Origin: a bacterium
GTDB taxonomy: Bacteria > Zhuqueibacterota > Zhuqueibacteria > Oceanimicrobiales > Oceanimicrobiaceae
Length of the DNA: 33,473 bases
Assembly (NCBI GenBank): GCA_046757025.1
Contig: JBHHXN010000046.1
Coordinates: 1-33,473, forward strand
Reading direction: 5' to 3'
How positions within the stretch are numbered: position 1 is the stretch's first letter; each line of letters starts with the position of its first letter. Of this stretch, positions 6,969-33,473 are shown in pieces. The notes under the pieces were generated by a model, which saw only the letters and a program-made list of their open reading frames with translations, was not told the origin of the DNA and ran no database searches. The translations under genes were made by a program, and so were the position numbers.

Positions 6969-8363
6969 TTACTCAACAGATGCCGGCAAATGAAAACGCA
7001 TGGTAGTGCCCTGTTTTTTTTTGCTTTCTACTTCGATCCAGCCCTGGTGTTTTTCGATGAGCCGTTTGCAAATGGCCAGTCCCAATCCGCTGCCGGAGGT
7101 TTTGGTGGTGAAAAACGGTTCAAATATTTGTTCTGGATCGCCTTCAAACCCGCAGCCGGTGTCCTGTACCGCCACCGCCACCAACGGCTTGCCTTTTTTG
7201 GTTTCGTTATGCAAGCGTATGCGCAATTCCCCGCCGCCATTCATGGACTGAATGGCGTTGAGGATGAGATTTAACATTACCTGCCCGACAGCGTCTTCGT
7301 CATGAATGACTTTCTCTAACGCTTCGGTTTCAAAAGACAATTTCACCTGAGCTTGTTTGATTTCTTCTTCCAGCGTGCTCAGGGTCTTTTCCACGGTTTT
7401 TTGCAGATCCGTGGCATTGGCTTCCAGTTCGCGGTCCCTGGCAAACGCCAAAAAGTCGCTCACCAGTCGATTCAAGCGGCGCACTTCACTGGGAATAAAT
7501 TCGAACAGCTCATCGGGTTCTTCTTTGGATTCGTACTTGGATTGCAGAACGTCGGCGGTGCTTTTGATGATGCCCAGCGGATTGCGAATTTCATGCGCCA
7601 CCGTCGCCGCCATTTGCCCCATGGCCGCCAACCGTTCGGTTTTGCGCAGCGATTCATTGGTTTTGATCAGCAATTGAATTGCCCAAAAAAGAAATACCGA
7701 AAACAAAACCGCCAGCGCCACGCTCACCAAACCGCCAAAAATCAAACCTCTCTGAAACACTCGCAGGAGATCAAAAAAATCGGCGCTTGCCTGCACCACC
7801 ACGATGGCCGCTACGTCGCCCAGCGAGCCAAACACCGGCGCATAGGCGTTTTTAAATCGATTGCCCGCCACGAGCTGCAGCGGCGCTGCTACCGCGATCC
7901 CGGACAGGGCTTGATCTAATGCGAGACTGTCCTCTTCCACAAAAGTCAATCGGTCGCCAAAGGTGAAAATGTCCGGGCTCGCCGCCAGGGTGCGGTAAAA
8001 TTTATCCACCAGATATACCCCCTGCAATTGATTGTCCTGGTGTACCTGCCGCAAATCGTGCTGTAACGAAGATAAAATAAACTCCAGATTGTCCGATTCC
8101 AGGTAGTACGAAAAATCTTTGGCCGCGATGATATTTGACGTTAAAGTCGCCACAGATCGCAAACGCGTTCCTAATTCTTTTTCTAAAAACAATTCCATGT
8201 TTTGCAGAAATTTCCAGCTTCCCAGGATAAATCCGAACAAAATCATCACCGTGAGCGCCACGATACCGATGACCATGACTTTACGCCGGCGCAGCAGTTT
8301 TTCATCCAGATTGGCCGGCGCTCCGGTTTGCTTTTTTATTTTTCGCCAAATATTTCCAGCCAC
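6969..8363 (-). CDS. Membrane sensor histidine kinase (2 TM, periplasmic sensor, HisKA, HATPase_c)
   Basis: H-box AHEIRNPL, N-box NLILNAIQSM, G1 DTGCG, F-box IFEPFFTTK, G2 GSGLGL; two hydrophobic helices flank a ~150-aa periplasmic domain. GTG start overlaps the upstream gene. Confidence 0.93.
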   Translation of the reverse strand: MAGNIWRKIKKQTGAPANLDEKLLRRRKVMVIGIVALTVMILFGFILGSWKFLQNMELFLEKELGTRLRSVATLTSNIIAAKDFSYYLESDNLEFILSSLQHDLRQVHQDNQLQGVYLVDKFYRTLAASPDIFTFGDRLTFVEEDSLALDQALSGIAVAAPLQLVAGNRFKNAYAPVFGSLGDVAAIVVVQASADFFDLLRVFQRGLIFGGLVSVALAVLFSVFLFWAIQLLIKTNESLRKTERLAAMGQMAATVAHEIRNPLGIIKSTADVLQSKYESKEEPDELFEFIPSEVRRLNRLVSDFLAFARDRELEANATDLQKTVEKTLSTLEEEIKQAQVKLSFETEALEKVIHDEDAVGQVMLNLILNAIQSMNGGGELRIRLHNETKKGKPLVAVAVQDTGCGFEGDPEQIFEPFFTTKTSGSGLGLAICKRLIEKHQGWIEVESKKKQGTTMRFHLPASVE

Positions 8364-8818
8364 TTGGCTAATTCCTCCTGAGAAAGTTCTTTATCGAACT
8401 TTTGATAAAATTCATCCTGAACAGATTTTTTCGACAAGCGGTCGTAGAAGTCCAGCGTTGAAATCACATGCGCCTGATGGGCTTTCGCGAATTGCTTGAT
8501 CTCAGCATCATCGCTGACCACCAGCACGCTTTTTTTCCTGGGCGCCTTGGCAATGAGATTTTTGATGAGCGGATCTGCTTTGAAAGGCGGTCGCGAAAAA
8601 ATCACCTTCAATGAACGAAAGTATGATTGAGAATCGATTCCTAGTGGCGGACTGCAACCGTCAAAAACCAGCGTGATTTTAACTTTTTTGTTGAGCAGAT
8701 AGGTTTTCAACTGCTGAATCAACGCCTCGCGTGCGGCTTCCAGACTTTCGGCCAGGTGCTGGCTGAGCCGCGGCACCCGGTGAATCAGGTTGTAGCCATC
8801 AATGATGATTTGGTCCAT
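8336..8818 (-). CDS. NYN-domain (YacP/Rae1-like, PIN fold) putative ribonuclease
   Basis: Motifs IIIDGYNLIH, LVFDG, ADPLI, VVSDD typical of NYN_YacP. Confidence 0.85.
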   Translation of the reverse strand: MDQIIIDGYNLIHRVPRLSQHLAESLEAAREALIQQLKTYLLNKKVKITLVFDGCSPPLGIDSQSYFRSLKVIFSRPPFKADPLIKNLIAKAPRKKSVLVVSDDAEIKQFAKAHQAHVISTLDFYDRLSKKSVQDEFYQKFDKELSQEELAKWLEIFGEK

Positions 8819-8825
8819 GACAAAC

Positions 8826-9638
8826 TTACTCCGTTAGTTTGCCGAGTTTGCCTTCGTAAATGAGAGCGACATTTCCCGTTAAAAGCAATCGCTTGTCCCG
8901 TGGATCGAGCGCCACCAGCAGGGTACCTCCGCGGGTCACAACTTCTGTGGGCAGCTTTGTGCGGCCGGCTAATTGCGCGAGAAAAGCCGAAGCCAGACAG
9001 CCGGTACCGCAGGAAAGAGTTTCTTCCTCCACTCCTCTTTCATAAGTTCGCAATTTGATTTTGGTGATCGAAACGATTTGCACGAAATTCACATTGGCGC
9101 CAGCCGGTTGAAATCTCACGTGCCGGCGATATTGTCTCCCTATTTTATTTACATCGACTTGTTCGAGATTCTCGCAAAACAAAACAAAGTGCGGCACGCC
9201 GGTGTTGACAAAACCGCCGTCCTCAAAACCGGCCTCTTCGACCACGTGCACGTCGATGTTCACCTCTCTGGCAGCTGACATTTTCAGTTTCACCGCCTGG
9301 TCGTTCACCTGTGCTGAATAAACTTCCCCGCCAACCGTGAACGTCATGTCGCTAGCTGCAATCCGGTGGTGAAAGGCAAAATGGGCAGCCGAACGAGCCC
9401 CGTTGCCGCAGGTGGCTTCGCTGCCATCGGCATTAAAATATCGCATGCGGAAGTCGTGTTCGGAGCTGTTTTCGATCAGCAGCACGCCATCGGCGCCCAC
9501 CGCTGTACGGCGCTGGCAAATCTCGCGAAAGAAATCCACCTCCTGTCCCGTAAAATGGCCGGCGCGATTATCGAACAGAATGAAATCGTTACCGGTGGCG
9601 GAATATTTATAAAAAGTGATTTCGGAAAGATCGCACAT
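8826..9638 (-). CDS. dapF: Diaminopimelate epimerase
   Basis: KYSATGNDF, GADG, NADGSEATCGNG, NTGVPH, NVNF, ERGVEEETLSCGTG (both catalytic cysteines present). Confidence 0.95.
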   Translation of the reverse strand: MCDLSEITFYKYSATGNDFILFDNRAGHFTGQEVDFFREICQRRTAVGADGVLLIENSSEHDFRMRYFNADGSEATCGNGARSAAHFAFHHRIAASDMTFTVGGEVYSAQVNDQAVKLKMSAAREVNIDVHVVEEAGFEDGGFVNTGVPHFVLFCENLEQVDVNKIGRQYRRHVRFQPAGANVNFVQIVSITKIKLRTYERGVEEETLSCGTGCLASAFLAQLAGRTKLPTEVVTRGGTLLVALDPRDKRLLLTGNVALIYEGKLGKLTE

Positions 9639-11030: not shown

Positions 11031-11063
11031 GTTAAATTTACGCCACTACCTCATCCTGCTAAA

Positions 11064-11219
11064 GCGTGTCTGAACTAAAACGACCCTGTCTTCTCGAAGG
11101 GCGCCTGGCTGAGGGTGAAATCCTGCTCAGCTCGGCGGAGTCTGTCCTGAGCTTTGTCGAAGGGACGCCTTCGCAAAAGAGCATGTCTATCGCGCATTTT
11201 CGAGTTTTCGGAGGGACAC
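11064..11219. mobile_element. MITE, family 'GAGTGTCTGAAC...GGACAC', 4-bp TSD TAAA
   Basis: Ends GCGTGTCTGAACTAAAACGAC and TTTTCGGAGGGACAC; TAAA at 11060-11063 and 11220-11223; internal REP-like CTGTCCTGAGCTTTGTCGAAGGG. Related copies at 17865, 20284-20410 and 33438. Confidence 0.7.
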
Positions 11220-14645: not shown

Positions 14646-16242
14646 TTATGCTGCAATGCCCAAAGAGTTGAACAATTTTTTCATTTCTAACTGGATGTTC
14701 TGATAATGCTTGTTTACCAGCGGCGGATTTTTGGGTTTTGGTCCTGGTTTTGTCTTGACAACACCGGCCAAAATCGGCTTAACTATTTTGTCCCGCAAGA
14801 CCAAGAGAGCCACTATAGCCTGCACTCCTTCCGGAACGGGTTCGTACTTTCTGGAGTTTTCGATCTTGCGAATGAGGTTTTTGCAGCGAAATTTCTTAAG
14901 GTCATGAGAGGCTTTTCGCGGCGAATAATTTCCATGAACAATTGGGTCGCGCGTCCGTATGGCAAAAGCAAGCTCAGCGGCAGTAAATCCCTGGGGGTTA
15001 GGCTCCAGACTGATTATCGCTTCCATGACCAGTCTGATGCGAGGCTTATTGATATCGATACCGCCAACTCGTGTCTGACCAATTTGAAAGGATTTGGGTA
15101 ATTCATCAAACCTGCCATCATCAATCGACGAGAAGTCGATACAACTGACTGCATCCAGGAATCGGTTGAGTATTTCTTTGAGGTGCGTGATGATCTCAGC
15201 GAAATTACTGAGCGACCGCCGGCAACCCAAAACTTTGGTGTTATGAACGATAGCTTCTGCGCGGAGAAGGCGTTCGCCTTTAGCATAAAACTTTACAGTG
15301 AGTGCATCAAAGTGAATCTTGAACACCGTCAAGCCATACGTAGGTCTCTCGATCACCAACTCCAGCCGAGGCTTTTTTCGTCTCTTCTGAGAGGGACGCT
15401 TTTTGTTACCAAAGATGTTTTTGATTCTCTTGATATCCAGTTCCGTCCGTGTAGGCTCTATTACCCCGTTAAAAACCTGGTCCATTTCTCGGCCTCGGGC
15501 AAACAGAAGATTCCGACTATATTCTGCCTGAAAGACCGAAAAACGGTAATGAAAACCACCGCTCACACACTTGGGTCAAGCGCCCTATAGCCCCATGATG
15601 ATGGGACAAGTTAACTGCGACAAGTCCAAGATGGTGAGCGTCGGTTATATCTGTAAAACAGTTGCCGTCTTTGGTAAATTTAATGCCTGCTTTTCTTGCT
15701 TTGCGTTCTACATACTCATGACCATTGAGCATGATTTGGGCATGGAACGGTGGATGTCCGCAAATCTTGATGGTGATATGCCCCCATTCTGGGTCCATGA
15801 TATGGAACGAATAATGCTTGACATAAGGCAGCGGCTTTTTCTTGGCAATGTTGGTGATTTTGCCATTTTCGTTGGAACGTTGAATATCGAAAACCACCGC
15901 CGGGGTGCGGCCGACAAGAATCACAAACACGCCCACAAAGTGCTCATCCGTGGGAAGATACTCTTGGGCTATTTCATGCTTGCGCTCTCCGGCGTGACAG
16001 TGTCTTATCGGTATCTTCTGATTTTTGGCATAGGCATGAATCCGGCGACTCATGCGACCAGCAAAACGCATAAGGTGTTGGTTATTTAAATGCTCATCTG
16101 AGCCTTTTAGTTGACGCCACCAGGTTCGGAAACCAGCCGGGGAACAACCAAGGGGGAAATAGGCATTCAGTACAATACGGTCGACACAATCGTAGGTAAA
16201 ATCCAGATAAGACGAATAATAATCAGTAAACGAGTCTAACAT
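14646..16242 (-). pseudogene. Frameshifted putative transposase-like gene (~530 codons; C-terminal winged helix; no recognisable DDE triad)
   Basis: Overlapping ORFs 15517-16242 and 14646-15566 read as halves of one protein (CVDRIVLNAY..GFRTWW..HYSFHIMDPEWGH..LNGHEY..VCERW / GFHYRFSVFQAEYSRNLLF..KFYAKGERLLRAE..DLKKFR..IAA). Frame change near 15556-15560; hairpins at both sides. Family assignment is from recollection of similar mobile 'hypothetical/MarR-annotated' proteins, not from a search. Confidence 0.65.
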
Positions 16243-17733: not shown

Positions 17734-17981
17734 TTACTTCATCAGTGCCCGGTTTAAACTCGTGGATTAAAATCTGAGCTGCCCTCCCTAAATCCCCCTC
17801 GAGAGGAGATCCCGCTAAGCGGGAGGGGATGATTACTGCCAAACAATCAAAGCAAGACACTATAGAATGATTGAACGAAAACGACCCGATCTTCCCGAAG
17901 GCCTCTAGGCCGAGAGTGAATTTCTGCCTGGCTCAGCGGGGCCTGTCCTGAGCTTTTTTTAACTGGACACTCATGATGTAA
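17734..17981. mobile_element. Composite MITE/REP cluster with 25-bp imperfect terminal IR
   Basis: TTACTTCATCAGTGCCCGGTTTAAA (17734-17758) is inverted with 17957-17981. Contains hairpin TCCCGCTAAGCGGGA and a 92-nt ungapped homolog (17865-17956) of 11064-11155. Confidence 0.55.
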
Positions 17982-20283: not shown

Positions 20284-20410
20284 GTGTCCATCCGTAAAGA
20301 ACCTTTTTTTGTCAATCCGCAATCTTTAAGCGGGAATCCATTGTTCCGTTAGGCACGAGATTCCCGATTTCTCGGGAATACACAAATGAGTCGTTTTCGT
20401 TCAGACACTC
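20284..20410. mobile_element. MITE of the same family as 11064-11219 (opposite orientation), 4-bp TSD ATTA
   Basis: Ends GTGTCCATCCGTAAA and GTCGTTTTCGTTCAGACACTC; ATTA at 20280-20283 and 20411-20414; internal GCGGGAATCCA...ATTCCCGATTTCTCGGGAAT REP-like cargo. Confidence 0.7.
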
Positions 20411-20571
20411 ATTACATGTTCACTTCATTTTACGACAAAAGTCTTCAGGTTATTTGAATGGAAACCGGGTGAAATCGCTCAAAAAAAAAGGTGCTTTTTC
20501 ATTTTTAAATACGGAAGTGACCTTTCTTAACCTGGATTGGAAATTTCTGGCAATGCAAGAACCGTCGAACG

Positions 20572-27021: not shown

Positions 27022-28248
27022 ATGTCATTTAAAAATATTTTAAGTATTTCGTTGTTGATTCTTGCCATTGGCTGTCAAAGTTCCTCGACAACAAATCAGG
27101 ATGAAACCAGCCTGCAGAAAAAAGCTCAGCAGCTTGCCCGTTCCACCATCATTCTGGACGGCCACGTGGATGTACCCTATCGATTGAACGCGAAAATGAC
27201 CGACATCTCCAACGCTACTGAAACCGGCGATTTTGACTATCCACGCGCCAAAACCGGCGGGCTGGATGCGCCGTTCATGTCCATTTACATTCCAGCGGCT
27301 TATCAGAATACCGCGGGAAAATCCAAATCCCACGCAGACAAGCTGATTGCCATAATGGACAGCGTCATCGCCGCCAACCCCGACAAGTTCGCACGGGCCA
27401 ACACCCCTTCCGAGATACGCGCGAATTTTTCAGCCGGGCTTATCTCCTTTCCTTATGGCATGGAAAACGGCTCGGCCGTCGAAGATGATTTGAGCAACGT
27501 TGCCTACTTTTTTGAGAAAGGAATCCGATACATCACATTGACTCACAGCAAAAAGAACCTCATTTGCGATTCCTCCTTTGACTCCGACAAAAGTTGGAAT
27601 GGTTTGAGTCCGTATGGCAAACAGGTAGTCAAAGAAATGAATCGGTTGGGAATACTGATCGATATCTCGCATGTTTCGGATTCAACGTTCTATCAGGTGC
27701 TGCGGCTTTCGAAAGCGCCGGTGATCTGCTCGCATTCGAGCTGCCGGCATTTCACCCCCGGCTACGAACGCAACGTCGATGACGACATGCTTAAAGCGCT
27801 GGCAAAAAACGGCGGCGTCATTCAAATCAACTTCGGCTCGAGCTTTCTCACGGCAGAAGCCAACAAATATGACGTTCAGAAATACGGCTACATTCAGAAA
27901 ATAATGGCCGACGAGGGCATCGCTAATTTTAATCATCCGCAAATCGAAGCGGAGATGAAAAAGTACCAGGAGGAAAAACCCTATCCCTATGCCTCGGTTG
28001 AGGATGTGGTGGATCACATCGACCATGTGGTGGAAGTCGCAGGCATCGACTACGTCGGTCTGGGCTCGGATTTTGATGGCGTGGGCGACACCCTGCCCAC
28101 GGACCTGAAATCGGTGGCCGATTATCCGAACATTATCTATCATCTGTTGAAACGCGGCTATTCCGAGCAAGACATCGAAAAAATCTTGAGCCGCAACGTG
28201 CTGCGGGTCTGGCAGCAAGTGAAGGATTATTCTGCACTACAGCCATGA
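27022..28248 (+). CDS. Membrane (renal-type) dipeptidase, peptidase M19, lipoprotein
   Basis: LDGHVD, GMENG, YITLTH, IDISHVS, SHSS, RNVDD, GLGSDFDG; lipobox AIGC; ATG at 27022 after GAGGGAG. Confidence 0.93.
   Translation: MSFKNILSISLLILAIGCQSSSTTNQDETSLQKKAQQLARSTIILDGHVDVPYRLNAKMTDISNATETGDFDYPRAKTGGLDAPFMSIYIPAAYQNTAGKSKSHADKLIAIMDSVIAANPDKFARANTPSEIRANFSAGLISFPYGMENGSAVEDDLSNVAYFFEKGIRYITLTHSKKNLICDSSFDSDKSWNGLSPYGKQVVKEMNRLGILIDISHVSDSTFYQVLRLSKAPVICSHSSCRHFTPGYERNVDDDMLKALAKNGGVIQINFGSSFLTAEANKYDVQKYGYIQKIMADEGIANFNHPQIEAEMKKYQEEKPYPYASVEDVVDHIDHVVEVAGIDYVGLGSDFDGVGDTLPTDLKSVADYPNIIYHLLKRGYSEQDIEKILSRNVLRVWQQVKDYSALQP
28145..28221 (+). repeat. Direct repeat copy 1 (3' end of dipeptidase gene)
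   Basis: 28145-28217 is identical to 29053-29125 (73 bp; 76/77 to 28221/29129). Confidence 0.95.
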
Positions 28249-28361
28249 TGGTGTTTTAAATCCCGACTACTACATCAAAACTGAGACTACGATAGAAGTT
28301 AATTCTGAATAATACACATTTCACTAAACAACTTGACAAACACCTAATTATTTAATAAAGT

Positions 28362-28646
28362 ATGAAAATAAATCAAGTTGTGATACTTAAAGACTTTGCA
28401 CAAAAAATTCAACGCAAGCATCAAATCGACACAGATGAAATATGTGAAGTTTTTCAAAATCAACCAAACTTTCGTAAATTAGAAAAGGGGGATATATTAG
28501 GTGAAGATGTATTCGGTGCGTATGGAAGGACGAACTCTGGTCGTTATCTAAGCGTTTTCTTTGTTTACAAATTTAATCAGAATGCTTTGATTATTAGCGC
28601 CCGAAACATGAATAAAAGTGAAAGGAAAAAGTATGCCAAAAAGTAA
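28362..28646 (+). CDS. brnT: BrnT-family type II toxin (ribonuclease)
   Basis: 94 aa; KIQRKHQI..EICEVF, GRTNSGRYLSVFF, IISARNMNKSERKKY; AT-rich; overlaps the downstream antitoxin gene. Confidence 0.85.
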   Translation: MKINQVVILKDFAQKIQRKHQIDTDEICEVFQNQPNFRKLEKGDILGEDVFGAYGRTNSGRYLSVFFVYKFNQNALIISARNMNKSERKKYAKK

Positions 28647-28923
28647 AGTGTTTCCAAAATTCAACTCATACGAAAAAGCTGCTGAATGGCTGGATAGCCA
28701 CTCCACCGCTAATTTAGAGGTTACAGAAATCCAATTTGAGGTGGCATTGCCTCTCAAACTCCAACTTCTCGATTCGTTAGGTGAGATAGAAGACACCATC
28801 ATGCTGGAAAAGGAAATCAGCCAGCAAATTCAACAAATTGCAAAGAAAAAAGGAATTTCCACTCATAAGCTAATCCACAAATGGCTTCAGGAGCAAGTGG
28901 CCAAATGTTCACGCATTGACTGA
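28633..28923 (+). CDS. BrnA/CopG-like antitoxin
   Basis: PKFNSYEKAAEWLDSHSTA N-terminus and C-terminal ribbon-helix-helix-like TIMLEKEISQQIQQIAKKKGISTHKLIHKWLQE; ATG at 28633 after AGGA. Confidence 0.8.
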   Translation: MPKSKVFPKFNSYEKAAEWLDSHSTANLEVTEIQFEVALPLKLQLLDSLGEIEDTIMLEKEISQQIQQIAKKKGISTHKLIHKWLQEQVAKCSRID

Positions 28924-29052
28924 ACGTAATTTATATTTAGCTATATTGCCGCAGTTGAATTTAATGAAATCGATTCAAAATCTAAAAATAAGGATTGAAT
29001 AAGACATCTGTATGGGTATCAAGTTTTAAAGGAAGAAGTGGACCATTTCCTG

Positions 29053-29159
29053 TGTTGAAACGCGGCTATTCCGAGCAAGACATCGAAAAAATCTTGAGCC
29101 GCAACGTGCTGCGGGTCTGGCAGCAGGTGGTAGATTTTGCACAGGGTAAAACAGAATAA
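29053..29159 (+). pseudogene. Direct repeat copy 2: orphan 3' fragment of the dipeptidase gene with an alternative C-terminus
   Basis: Reads LKRGYSEQDIEKILSRNVLRVWQQVVDFAQGKTE* (stop 29157-29159) versus ...QQVKDYSALQP* in the intact gene. Confidence 0.85.
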
Positions 29160-29332: not shown

Positions 29333-31843
29333 ATGATCTCTAACCAAAATACACCGGCTGCGCCAAAATTTCTTCTGTGCTTATTTTTTGTAAGTCTCAT
29401 CAGTTTGCAGCCAGGCTGCAGTCAAATCGAAACTTTTTTTGACCCGCGGTCCGGCCCCTTTCCATTTACATTTCAGAAAATTCAGGACGCCACTCACCAG
29501 GACCGTTATATCGATTTTGATCACGACGGCCGTGACGAATGCATGCGGGTGATAAACGAGCGCGACCCCCGTATCACTCCCAGCCGAATTCAAATATTGG
29601 ACCACGAGTTCACCTTTATCGAAGAAGTCAATTTCAATGGACAGCTTACAAAAATTGCCGCATTCGACTGGAGCAATAACGGTGTCGATGACATTTGCGC
29701 GACTTATACTCGTCAGGACACTTCGTTTTTACGAATCATCGACTACCAGGGTAAAATAATTCAAGATGACGTGCCCCTATTCATCGGCAAAGCCCGCAAC
29801 GACAGCAGCGGCGCCTACAAATGGGAAGGACACATCTCTCAGATTTTATATTCCGATTTGGAAGACGACGGCTGCCCGGAATTGATTCTCTTTCCTTCCG
29901 AAGGATACGCTCAGAAACCACGCGGCGTCTATGTGTATGATGCGAAATCATTCAAATTAAAATGGCATTACGATGTCGGCCCGGCCTTGAATCAACCTGC
30001 CATTTTCGATTTTGACCGGGATGGCAAAATGGAAATTCTCCTTTCCACCAAAGCGCCCAAAAACGGTAATCGCGCCAACGGCACAACCGATGAAAATGCG
30101 CATTTATTTCTTTTCAATAGCGCTGGGGACACTTTGTGGACGCGGTCGTATATCGATAGCTATTCCAATGTTGAAGCCCGAATCGAAGACCTCGAGGCCG
30201 ATGGTGAATATGAAATCATCGCTTTATTATATGACTCATTTTTCAGAGGCTTTTCGCCCAGAATAGAGATCATTCAACCGCAAACCGGACAGCTTATGCA
30301 ATCCAGAAATTTGCCGGGTATTTTTGGCAGCTTTACAACGGCACGAAGGGATCACAAGACCAATAAAGAAATTCTCTACGCCAGCTCTGAAGGGATTTTG
30401 ATTTCCATAAATAACCAGTTGCAAGAAACACTAAAAAAGGAATTTAAATTCAATATATCAAAAGTAGTTAGTTGTGAAGATTTGGATGGCGACGGATTGA
30501 ATGAGATTGTGCTAACAACGAACGACGGCTCCGCATGGCTGGAAAATCAGCTCAATATTAAAGCAAAATATGCATCCGTACGATTTATTAGGCAGAGAAT
30601 TCAAACTTATCATCGTCGCAATAAGAAGCCGCTCATTTTATTGCAGAGCGGTGAAAGCAGTGCGCTGTTTTCCCTTGAAAAAAATAACCATTATCTTCTG
30701 TCCTTTTACGCTCCTTTTGTGGCAGTCCTTTTTAGCGGGGCTTTTCTGATCTTGCTTTTCATCAATAATGTACGCTACTACCGCCAGCGCCGTAACTCCA
30801 GACAACTTTTTGAACTGCTGTCTTCACTGCAACACGATCCGCTTTTATTGCTCAACCGCAACCATCAGGTAATGTCTGCAAATAGCAACGCGCGGCAACT
30901 GCTGCAATGTAACGGCAAAAAGCTTCCCCTTGAAATCGCTGCACTCGATATCAACGGCGAGCTGAAAGCCGCGTTATCGGAGCTGCCAAACAATCCGCCG
31001 GTTCGTTTCGAAAGGGAGGTTCAATTCCAGGCTTCTGCCAGCCACAAGGTACGCCTGCTGGCCGAGCCCATCAAATTGGCATCATCAAGTTATCAGTGGT
31101 TGGTTCTCTTGCAAAACGATCACACCAAAGAGGAGAGGGAAAAAGCAAAAACCTGGTCCGCCATGGCACAGCGCATCGCCCACGACATCAACAATCCGCT
31201 CACCAGCATTCAGCTCACCCTGCAGCGTTTGCAAATGGAATACCGCGATCAAGAAAGCCAGAAGGTCTTGAAATACGAACAATTTACCAACAAAATCATG
31301 GAGCGCATTGAGTCGTTGCGCCGCATGAACCGCGGCTTCATGAAATTTCTCAACCTTGAAAAACTCAATCTCCAGTCCACAGAAATCAATCAATTTATAG
31401 AAAATTTGTTCAAAAATAAAATCATCGAATTGCCGCAGGACATTCAATTGCAGAAAAAATTCAATCCCGATTTACCCGCCACCAATCTGGATCAGGAGCA
31501 AGTACAAAACCTGCTGGAAAATTTAATTGCCAACGCCATCAACGCCATGCCGGACGGCGGCACGCTTTCCATCAGCACCAGTCTGGCATCGGATTTGCAA
31601 TTTGATGAGCCTGATTCCCAGCCGCGTGATTACTGCATAATCGAAGTCATGGACACCGGCGTGGGTGTGCCGGCCGATATTCGGGAGAAACTCTTTCAGC
31701 CGTTCACCTCGCGGTCGCATACCGGCACGGGATTGGGACTCACCATCGTCAAAAAAATAGTAGATGATCACCAGGGAAAGATTGAATTCCATAGCGAAGA
31801 AGGGGTGGGCAGTTCGTTTGAGGTGTATCTGCCGGTTGCATAA
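29333..31843 (+). CDS. Sensor histidine kinase with extracytoplasmic FG-GAP/VCBS-like repeat domain, TM helix, PAS-like region, HisKA and HATPase_c
   Basis: DFDHDG, DWSNNG, DLEDDG, DFDRDG, DLEADG, DLDGDG motifs; TM near aa 460-480; AHDINNPL, NLIANAINAM, DTGVG, FQPF, GTGLGL. Confidence 0.92.
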   Translation: MISNQNTPAAPKFLLCLFFVSLISLQPGCSQIETFFDPRSGPFPFTFQKIQDATHQDRYIDFDHDGRDECMRVINERDPRITPSRIQILDHEFTFIEEVNFNGQLTKIAAFDWSNNGVDDICATYTRQDTSFLRIIDYQGKIIQDDVPLFIGKARNDSSGAYKWEGHISQILYSDLEDDGCPELILFPSEGYAQKPRGVYVYDAKSFKLKWHYDVGPALNQPAIFDFDRDGKMEILLSTKAPKNGNRANGTTDENAHLFLFNSAGDTLWTRSYIDSYSNVEARIEDLEADGEYEIIALLYDSFFRGFSPRIEIIQPQTGQLMQSRNLPGIFGSFTTARRDHKTNKEILYASSEGILISINNQLQETLKKEFKFNISKVVSCEDLDGDGLNEIVLTTNDGSAWLENQLNIKAKYASVRFIRQRIQTYHRRNKKPLILLQSGESSALFSLEKNNHYLLSFYAPFVAVLFSGAFLILLFINNVRYYRQRRNSRQLFELLSSLQHDPLLLLNRNHQVMSANSNARQLLQCNGKKLPLEIAALDINGELKAALSELPNNPPVRFEREVQFQASASHKVRLLAEPIKLASSSYQWLVLLQNDHTKEEREKAKTWSAMAQRIAHDINNPLTSIQLTLQRLQMEYRDQESQKVLKYEQFTNKIMERIESLRRMNRGFMKFLNLEKLNLQSTEINQFIENLFKNKIIELPQDIQLQKKFNPDLPATNLDQEQVQNLLENLIANAINAMPDGGTLSISTSLASDLQFDEPDSQPRDYCIIEVMDTGVGVPADIREKLFQPFTSRSHTGTGLGLTIVKKIVDDHQGKIEFHSEEGVGSSFEVYLPVA

Positions 31844-33320: not shown

Positions 33321-33437
33321 CTACTGTATTTTCAGCGATAGAACAAATCTCCCTTGCGTTTTTACTGTTATGTGTATTATTTATACCTTAAATCATGCGC
33401 ATTGCTGGAGGCACTAAATGAACATGGTAAGGTTAAA

Positions 33438-33473
33438 TAGTGTCTGAACGAAAACTCGATTATTCATGTCATT
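33438..33473. mobile_element. Left end of another MITE of the 'AGTGTCTGAAC' family, cut by the window edge
   Basis: TAAA followed by TAGTGTCTGAACGAAAAC, matching the ends at 11064 and 20410. Confidence 0.55.

Follow-up and report, generated by a model that had tools for sequence, protein, structure and literature searches.

A BrnT/BrnA toxin–antitoxin cassette between duplicated dipeptidase gene ends in a Zhuqueibacterota genome

The dipeptidase end and its insert

We analysed a stretch of 33,473 nucleotides (contig JBHHXN010000046.1 of assembly GCA_046757025.1, hereafter the window), in which a toxin–antitoxin (TA) pair is enclosed by a duplication of a dipeptidase gene end. The features of the region are the following.

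27022..28248, + strand: membrane dipeptidase (peptidase M19), the intact host gene, with ATG at 27022 and ending in ...WQQVKDYSALQP*
28145..28217, + strand: left copy of the 73-bp repeat, coding for LKRGY...VWQQ; the identity reaches 28221 in sequencing runs X2 and X3
28218..28248, + strand: functional tail VKDYSALQP*, orthologue-like, equal to the other tail at 13 of 31 bases
28333..28361, + strand: promoter-like TTGACA-N17-TAAAGT immediately 5' of brnT, from a site scan
28362..28646, + strand: BrnT-family ribonuclease toxin, 94 aa; 72% aa identity to its nearest homologue found, which occupies this host site in locus L107
28633..28923, + strand: CopG/BrnA-type antitoxin, 96 aa, overlapping the toxin 3' end
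29053..29125, + strand: right (displaced) copy of the 73-bp repeat, with an abrupt 5' edge
29126..29159, + strand: displaced tail VVDFAQGKTE* (right-hand GGTGGTAG tail), in the frame of the repeat
29333..31843, + strand: FG-GAP-repeat histidine kinase, directly 3' of the dipeptidase at the empty site of genome G013

The direct repeat is exact (28145-28217 and 29053-29125, period 908) and constitutes the top-matching repeat family within the window. It is unique in the genome, where only a 77%-identical paralogue exists elsewhere, and no homology to the dipeptidase gene was found 5' of its second copy. A previous sequence-only reading had described an AT-rich BrnT/BrnA pair between two identical copies 908 bp apart, and both copies as continuing in frame into different tails. 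Indeed, the insert has a GC content of 0.35, and both tails, VKDYSALQP* (stop at 28248) and VVDFAQGKTE* (stop at 29159), can be read in the dipeptidase frame.

Pfam identified the host gene as an M19 dipeptidase (E 7e-99; the longest open reading frame opens at TTG 26986), the toxin as BrnT (PF04365, 43.2 bits, cut-off 34.5) and the antitoxin as a CopG antitoxin (PF12441) at 27.1 bits, slightly below the cut-off of 28. The family-invariant residues of BrnT are present, and the only PDB match was weak (7vd7, E 0.04). On the basis of these family matches the insert is assigned as a BrnT/BrnA type II TA, with BrnT upstream of and overlapping a CopG/RHH-type antitoxin; it holds no other mobile-element gene. 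Promoter-like sites occur in the region at chance level (4 versus 3.5 in shuffles), and TTGACA together with the AT-rich block after it is conserved in the cassette of L107. Because the variable tail lies beyond the dipeptidase Pfam domain (residues 51-411 of 420), a change of tail would be expected to have little effect on the enzyme.

The window was also said to lack a recombinase gene, and genome-wide searches agree. None was found on the contig of the window; tyrosine recombinases occur only on contigs C96 (XerD-like) and C300 (an Xer-like fragment at the contig end), and a single large serine recombinase lies on C210. The C300 fragment scored best to generic Xer-type models, all below the cut-off. 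Two overlapping reading frames on the minus strand of the window (14646-16242; 241 and 306 aa) look by eye like a frameshifted transposase-like gene, for which Pfam and NCBIfam returned no match. REP/MITE-like dispersed intergenic repeats are found at 11059-11155, 17860-17956, 20390-20414 and 33433-33459 of the window and are frequent elsewhere in the genome.

The Logan contigs of all four runs end at the repeat and include the junction from the cassette to the right repeat; the runs stem from one study, and X1 is possibly the source sample. The junction from the left repeat to the cassette is also present in X2, X3 and X4. None of the listed runs holding the locus is an RNA dataset. In X2 and X3 the repeat piece measures 77 nt, which implies a G at 28218 in the left copy, where the window and X4 have an A, so that identity ends at different positions in different samples. 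One could ask whether the arrangement is an assembly artefact, or an empty chromosome and a free 908-bp circle collapsed to a single contig. Graphs of 31-letter contigs do not separate the integrated form from circle plus empty site, and no listed contig piece covers the entire locus. However, the junctions recur in four out of four runs, the two tails differ, and a like arrangement stands in L107, an independent assembly of another lineage, so that we regard this explanation as extremely improbable. Cassette depth below that of both flanks (10.8 vs 14/13.1; 8.9 vs 11.3/11.1; 7.09 vs 11.4/10.5; 5.87 vs 8.16/7.66 in the four runs) was considered as a sign of an empty allele and dropped, because ordinary short contigs of C62 fell equally low (6.8 and 8.28 vs about 11).

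The same site in relatives

The best-scoring dipeptidase orthologue belongs to another genus (G013, contig C131). Its gene ends with ...VVDYAETQK*, and directly after it come the same two genes, for a histidine kinase and a response regulator. With neither TA nor repeat, the locus represents an empty syntenic site. An empty allele before the kinase had been anticipated and is thereby found; the anticipated ending VVDFAQGKTE, however, was seen on no empty allele. Among 27 dipeptidase orthologue loci checked, 5 of them with less than 700 nt downstream, a second gene-end copy was detected at one, L107 (JGI contig Ga0247727_10008257), where the region upstream of the dipeptidase is syntenic with the window. 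At the dipeptidase end of L107 an array (7152-8987) is made up of BrnT-BrnA, a gene-end copy, an AbiEii-type TA and a third copy, which answers the earlier suggestion to look for other cargo at this site. The BrnT-BrnA of L107 is fused through the loss of one base, and its gene-end copy (82 bp) is 89% identical to its own dipeptidase gene.

BrnT and BrnA of the two carriers share 72% and 67% of their amino acids, and the next-best BrnT match reached 59% both in 125 genomes of the class and in the protein collection. At the nucleotide level the TA is 73% and the dipeptidase 70% identical. The non-coding parts of the cassette gave no informative match in the loci compared. In the dipeptidase tree the window gene groups with G008, G012, G013 and others (97/94 support), L107 groups with G010 and G020 (92/81 support), and both clades include relatives without a gene-end copy. 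As judged from tree and alignments, two separate clades carry one TA lineage at one host site, and both have neighbours that lack the copy. The displaced copies of both carriers start within about three codons of each other and are still in frame, and we infer from this that renewal has kept them from decaying. A recent event or ongoing conversion had been proposed from the perfect identity. A recent date fits the repeat identity alone, given that a roughly 70%-identical lineage has the orthologous TA at this very site.

In two more genera a TumE gene lies directly 3' of the dipeptidase orthologue (G003:C5 21983-22210, locus L161, and G008:C183 209-382). The G003 locus holds no spare copy within 8.3 kb, and the G008 contig ends there. 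The dipeptidase end may be a TA hotspot.

The tails themselves were compared next to the repeat core. The two tails of the window are as divergent as orthologues of different genera, and the dipeptidase orthologue cores match at 48-62 of 73 bases. The left tail has the length of nine residues and the penultimate Q that are both found in several orthologues, while the right tail has V at position 2 and adjoins the kinase like the empty allele. We had considered the downstream tail as ancestral, and dropped this since DNA and protein comparisons came out even. The claim that the insertion swapped the dipeptidase C-terminus is not supported as stated, since the left tail is as orthologue-like as the right one (18 versus 16 of 31 bases shared with G013). 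Nor does a plain single crossover, by which a small circle had been suggested to integrate, suffice: it leaves unexplained 73 identical bases beside tails that agree at only 13 of 31. Because a single crossover with a diverged donor gives no perfect 73-bp core, conversion or repeated within-species recombination would have to be added to the crossover.

DFAxGK is common to the displaced tails of the two carriers (21 of 31 bases), and a tail of this type is absent from all 23 functional orthologue tails listed. This bears on a different history, in which the dipeptidase end received a single insertion long ago that passed down by vertical inheritance, was homogenised by conversion, was mostly lost and is now immobile between lineages. 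Such a course would account for the equal divergence of TA and dipeptidase between the two carriers and for displaced copies with almost coincident start points and a GK tail in common, and the G/A polymorphism at 28218 fits conversion. It would, however, require many losses, given that 26 of the 27 orthologue loci are without a copy (5 with less than 700 nt downstream), and loss by recombination between the repeats should leave a GK-type tail on the gene, which none of the 23 listed tails has. In addition, a dead fragment would hardly stay in frame across 30% divergence, and the third-position bias at other loci (see below) points to donors. We consider vertical descent of the whole structure unlikely.

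Gene-end copies at other toxin–antitoxin loci

A scan of 4941 open reading frame ends of the source genome, spurious frames included, gave two high-identity, non-paralogue duplications around a low-GC insert, namely that of the dipeptidase and one on contig C62. At the latter (G000:C62 4584-5672; L045, L082), TumE and an 88-aa partner lie between copies of an OPT transporter 3' end (136 bp, 91%, period 953), with a stop codon in the spare copy. A search of the genome for other gene-3'-end duplications around TA modules had been proposed, and a second one is thus present. On contig C15 (L172:234-1297) the 3' end of an ABC permease gene is duplicated 84 nt downstream, and a nucleotidyltransferase (DUF6036/AbiEii-like) pair follows outside the permease-end copies. 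On contig C14 a 5'-end duplication of a cysteine-desulfurase-like gene (about 230 bp, 95%, at 384 and 8775) surrounds an 8.4-kb block.

We then surveyed BrnT, TumE, DUF433, ParE and HicA loci in 23 genomes of the order, taking the best 27-30 loci per family with flanks of 1.5 kb, by which longer inserts are missed. A flanking direct repeat of at least 40 bp was present at 27 of the 151 TA loci, and at 17 of the 151 (about one in nine, by manual sorting) copies of a host gene terminus stood on both sides. Fifteen of these use the 3' side and two the 5' side of the host gene; two lie in the source genome and 15 in ten relatives. The host genes are unrelated to each other and include ackA, dut, an AcrB-family gene, an LptD-family gene and a zinc dehydrogenase. 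Excluded from the 17 were L067, L075, L076, L223, L234, L281, L283, L295, L299 and L300, with non-coding, TA-internal, paralogue or ambiguous repeats, and also L040, which overlaps L039.

Housekeeping controls were never flanked by gene ends (glyoxalase 0/30, thioredoxin 0/30). The difference between 17/151 and 0/60 has a Fisher p of 0.004, or 0.007 without the source genome, with related loci that are not independent. Accessory controls (four-helix-bundle and DUF559 genes) gave 0/57 by manual reading, which makes 0/117 for all controls, yet non-coding or simple repeats frequently stood beside them (15/57), so that TA loci are no richer in flanking repeats of at least 40 bp as such (27/151). 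From this data gene-end flanking appears TA-specific among the families tested, and repeat flanking as such does not, a contrast that rests on manual sorting. Around DUF559 genes (L431-L457) paired palindromic repeats were frequent, and around four-helix-bundle genes (L401-L430) simple repeats; each of the two has the look of a separate small mobile unit.

Searching the genome contigs for BrnT with the single protein gave no matches, and the alignment search returned 43 loci, among which L181 and L197 carry gene-end copies and L203 and L210 carry TA arrays; among further class-level BrnT loci, one of 29 did so (L382). Arrays of three to four gene-end copies were found at L162, L163, L107 and, in a Blastocatellia genome, L181. 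Gene-end copies alternate with TA pairs in G010 (two loci), L107 and the Blastocatellia genome (four copies). At L165:929-3210 (G011) a 6-phosphogluconolactonase-family gene has a TA on each side, with a PIN pair behind a 5'-end copy and BrnT/BrnA before a 3'-end copy.

Comparison of the genes with their spare copies in 22 pairs, one of them non-coding, gave 78, 36 and 224 mismatches at codon positions 1, 2 and 3, four long pairs contributing 130 of the 224 third-position differences. Many diverged copies hold identical tracts of 50-83 bp. Since the mismatches pile up at third codon positions, the spare copies would seem to derive mostly from working orthologues rather than from decaying local duplicates, in a pattern suggestive of mosaic recombination. 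C62 shows no third-position bias (5/4/3). The repeats measure 47-647 bp across the cases, and no 6-8-mer was shared at the 24 copy edges beyond shuffles; variable lengths and motif-free edges argue against one site-specific enzyme. The 69 proteins scanned contain no recombinase or transposase family besides the two recombinases of the genome itself, which had been included deliberately.

The duplication could alternatively have arisen locally during illegitimate TA capture, by a template switch or break repair that copied 73 host bases twice, with one-sided homology and no portable spare arm. The perfect identity and the abrupt 5' edge at the dipeptidase are what such an event would leave, and for long target duplications double-strand breakage has been put forward by Furuta et al. 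(PMC2853133). Most other spare copies, however, have a diverged, synonymously changed 5' part that is impossible to obtain from the host's own gene, and the same TA with the same edge occurs again in a second lineage. As a general explanation local duplication is very unlikely; it may be the origin of the first duplication.

Insertion mode and known systems

We think it probable that the recombinase-less BrnT/BrnA cassette entered, and still moves, by RecA-type recombination, with the gene end as homology handle. DNA of a relative, consisting of gene end, TA and spare gene end, would enter the cell; comEC, dprA and recA are present in the genome. With recombination at both the gene and the spare copy, the TA would then come to lie behind an intact gene in any downstream context, and crossover or conversion between the copies would keep the shared core identical and the outermost tails different. 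A later cassette could reuse the same gene end, which would give arrays. Cells that lose the cassette through recombination of its flanking repeats would be eliminated by TA addiction; the dominance of TA cargo is proposed to follow from this elimination.

Several observations weigh against this RecA-type route. The conversion or repeated crossover step that it needs for a 73-bp core beside unlike tails is assumed. The shared DFAxGK of the displaced tails fits common descent of the whole structure and is not predicted by simple crossover, and the TA has diverged about as much as the dipeptidase, as vertical descent would give. C62 has no third-position bias, and its spare copy contains a stop. 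Competence genes are widespread and do not by themselves demonstrate competence. Finally, two relatives carry TumE behind the dipeptidase, one of them (G003) without a spare copy.

Gene 3' ends are also replaced by integrase-encoding elements. Phage 21 and e14 integrate into icd, whose 3' end is replaced, leaving icdC. The likeness is evident: a duplicated gene 3' end, a whole gene and a displaced fragment downstream. These elements, however, bring an integrase of their own and cross over at one fixed point, whereas the inserts described here are of 0.7-1.9 kb with variable edges and no integrase. No integrase gene lies beside the putative attachment site, and a similar edge in the two BrnT carriers stands beside 24 edges without a shared motif. 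Orphan C-terminal arrays of Rhs/CDI systems and integron cassette arrays with TA likewise consist of modules that are separated by homologous repeats and renewed by recombination. In contrast, the repeat here is an ordinary host gene end and the payload a separate TA operon. Neither an attC-like motif nor an integron integrase was identified; the C300 fragment, as noted, scored best to generic Xer-type models below the cut-off.

A recombinase need not be encoded by the element itself. According to the part of PMC3191183 used here, the microcin H47 island of E. coli excises and integrates without a recombinase of its own and independently of RecA; RecA dependence is therefore not assured for our cassette either. 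Like the cassette, the island is small, recombinase-free, lies between long imperfect direct repeats and forms hybrid sites; it differs in its one fixed site and its RecA independence, while the TA cassettes use many host genes. The locus might accordingly be the remnant or trans-mobilised passenger of an integrase element that replaces the gene 3' end, or move independently of RecA like the H47 island. The equal 5' edge in two lineages points in this direction, as do the serine recombinase and the Xer-like fragment elsewhere in the genome (94.8% complete), the H47 precedent and the proposal, in the sections of PMC13617665 considered, that TA-only islets remain after mobile-gene loss. Opposed to it are more than 15 unrelated host genes, repeats of 47-647 bp at 3' as well as 5' ends without an edge motif, BrnT and AbiEii copies of L107 that start about 26 nt apart, scanned inserts without a recombinase, and viral contigs without a relative of the window BrnT. 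We hold this possibility to be decidedly unlikely and retain RecA-type recombination as the preferred route.

The locus works like an insertion that duplicates a long target stretch, a mode known from restriction–modification (RM) systems. As described in the portions of PMC2853133 (Furuta, Abe and Kobayashi 2010) at hand, where Nobusato et al. 2000 is cited for this insertion mode, RM genes are inserted with a long, variable target duplication and no other mobile genes. These duplications often span start or stop codons and occur mostly in competent species; experimental proof of release and reinsertion is not given there, and the word toxin does not occur in the main text. The parts of a 2013 review consulted (PMC3874152) assign the mode to RM systems only. 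The cassette shares with such insertions the presumably addictive cargo, the absence of another mobile gene, the repeat above 30 bp, the empty site in a relative, and repeats that often reach across a start or stop codon without disrupting the gene. In the terms used for RM systems, the direct repeat of more than 30 bp surrounds an insert below 20 kb (73 bp, period 908), a relative of another genus (G013:C131) has the single-copy empty site, and the repeat is unique in the genome. In place of R and M genes, however, the cargo is type II (and IV) TA with RNase-type toxins, and the DNA-cutting trigger suggested for RM systems is absent. Further differences from RM insertions, as far as these are set out in the same source, are orthologous, synonymously diverged copies with two different tails, cassettes that stack into arrays at one gene end, and one cassette that has kept its site in lineages of about 70% identity.

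A 2026 study of Photorhabdus (PMC13617665) describes, in the text available, TA-only islets without mobile genes and explains them by mobile-gene loss and recombination at flanking core genes, with spread proposed to occur by homologous recombination. Those islets use two flanking core genes and need no duplication, whereas our cassette brings its own second arm; the term direct repeat does not occur in that text. We found no paper on type II TA cassettes between duplicated gene ends in the literature that could be searched, most of the subscription literature being unsearchable. What is new here is hence the TA cargo, the stacking into arrays and a persistence at one gene end that spans lineages; the insertion mode itself is known for RM systems.

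Rather doubtful, yet worth stating, is a wider reading in which type II TA pairs would be minimal selfish mobile elements. The spare host gene end would serve as a self-renewing arm and make them faithful to a gene across genera; natural transformation would let them cycle between filled and empty sites, and integron-like arrays would build up. If true, this would be a general arrival route of orphan chromosomal TA systems.

How chromosomal TA pairs enter without nearby mobile genes is, according to PMC13617665, still an open matter. In the order surveyed, roughly every ninth of the sampled TA loci keeps a spare host gene end as a readable footprint, which speaks for homology-driven insertion and from which target, donor and arrival order can be predicted. 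Long target duplication is thereby extended from DNA-cutting RM systems to RNase-type toxins. By analogy this suggests addiction, and not DNA cleavage, as the possible common factor of RM and TA insertions. The 908-bp unit lends itself to easy testing in a laboratory strain.

Long TA arrays of another kind were seen at L203, L210 (Anaerolineae), L170 and L171. They are split by repeats of 40-150 bp without a mapped host gene end and are possibly integron-like cassette arrays.
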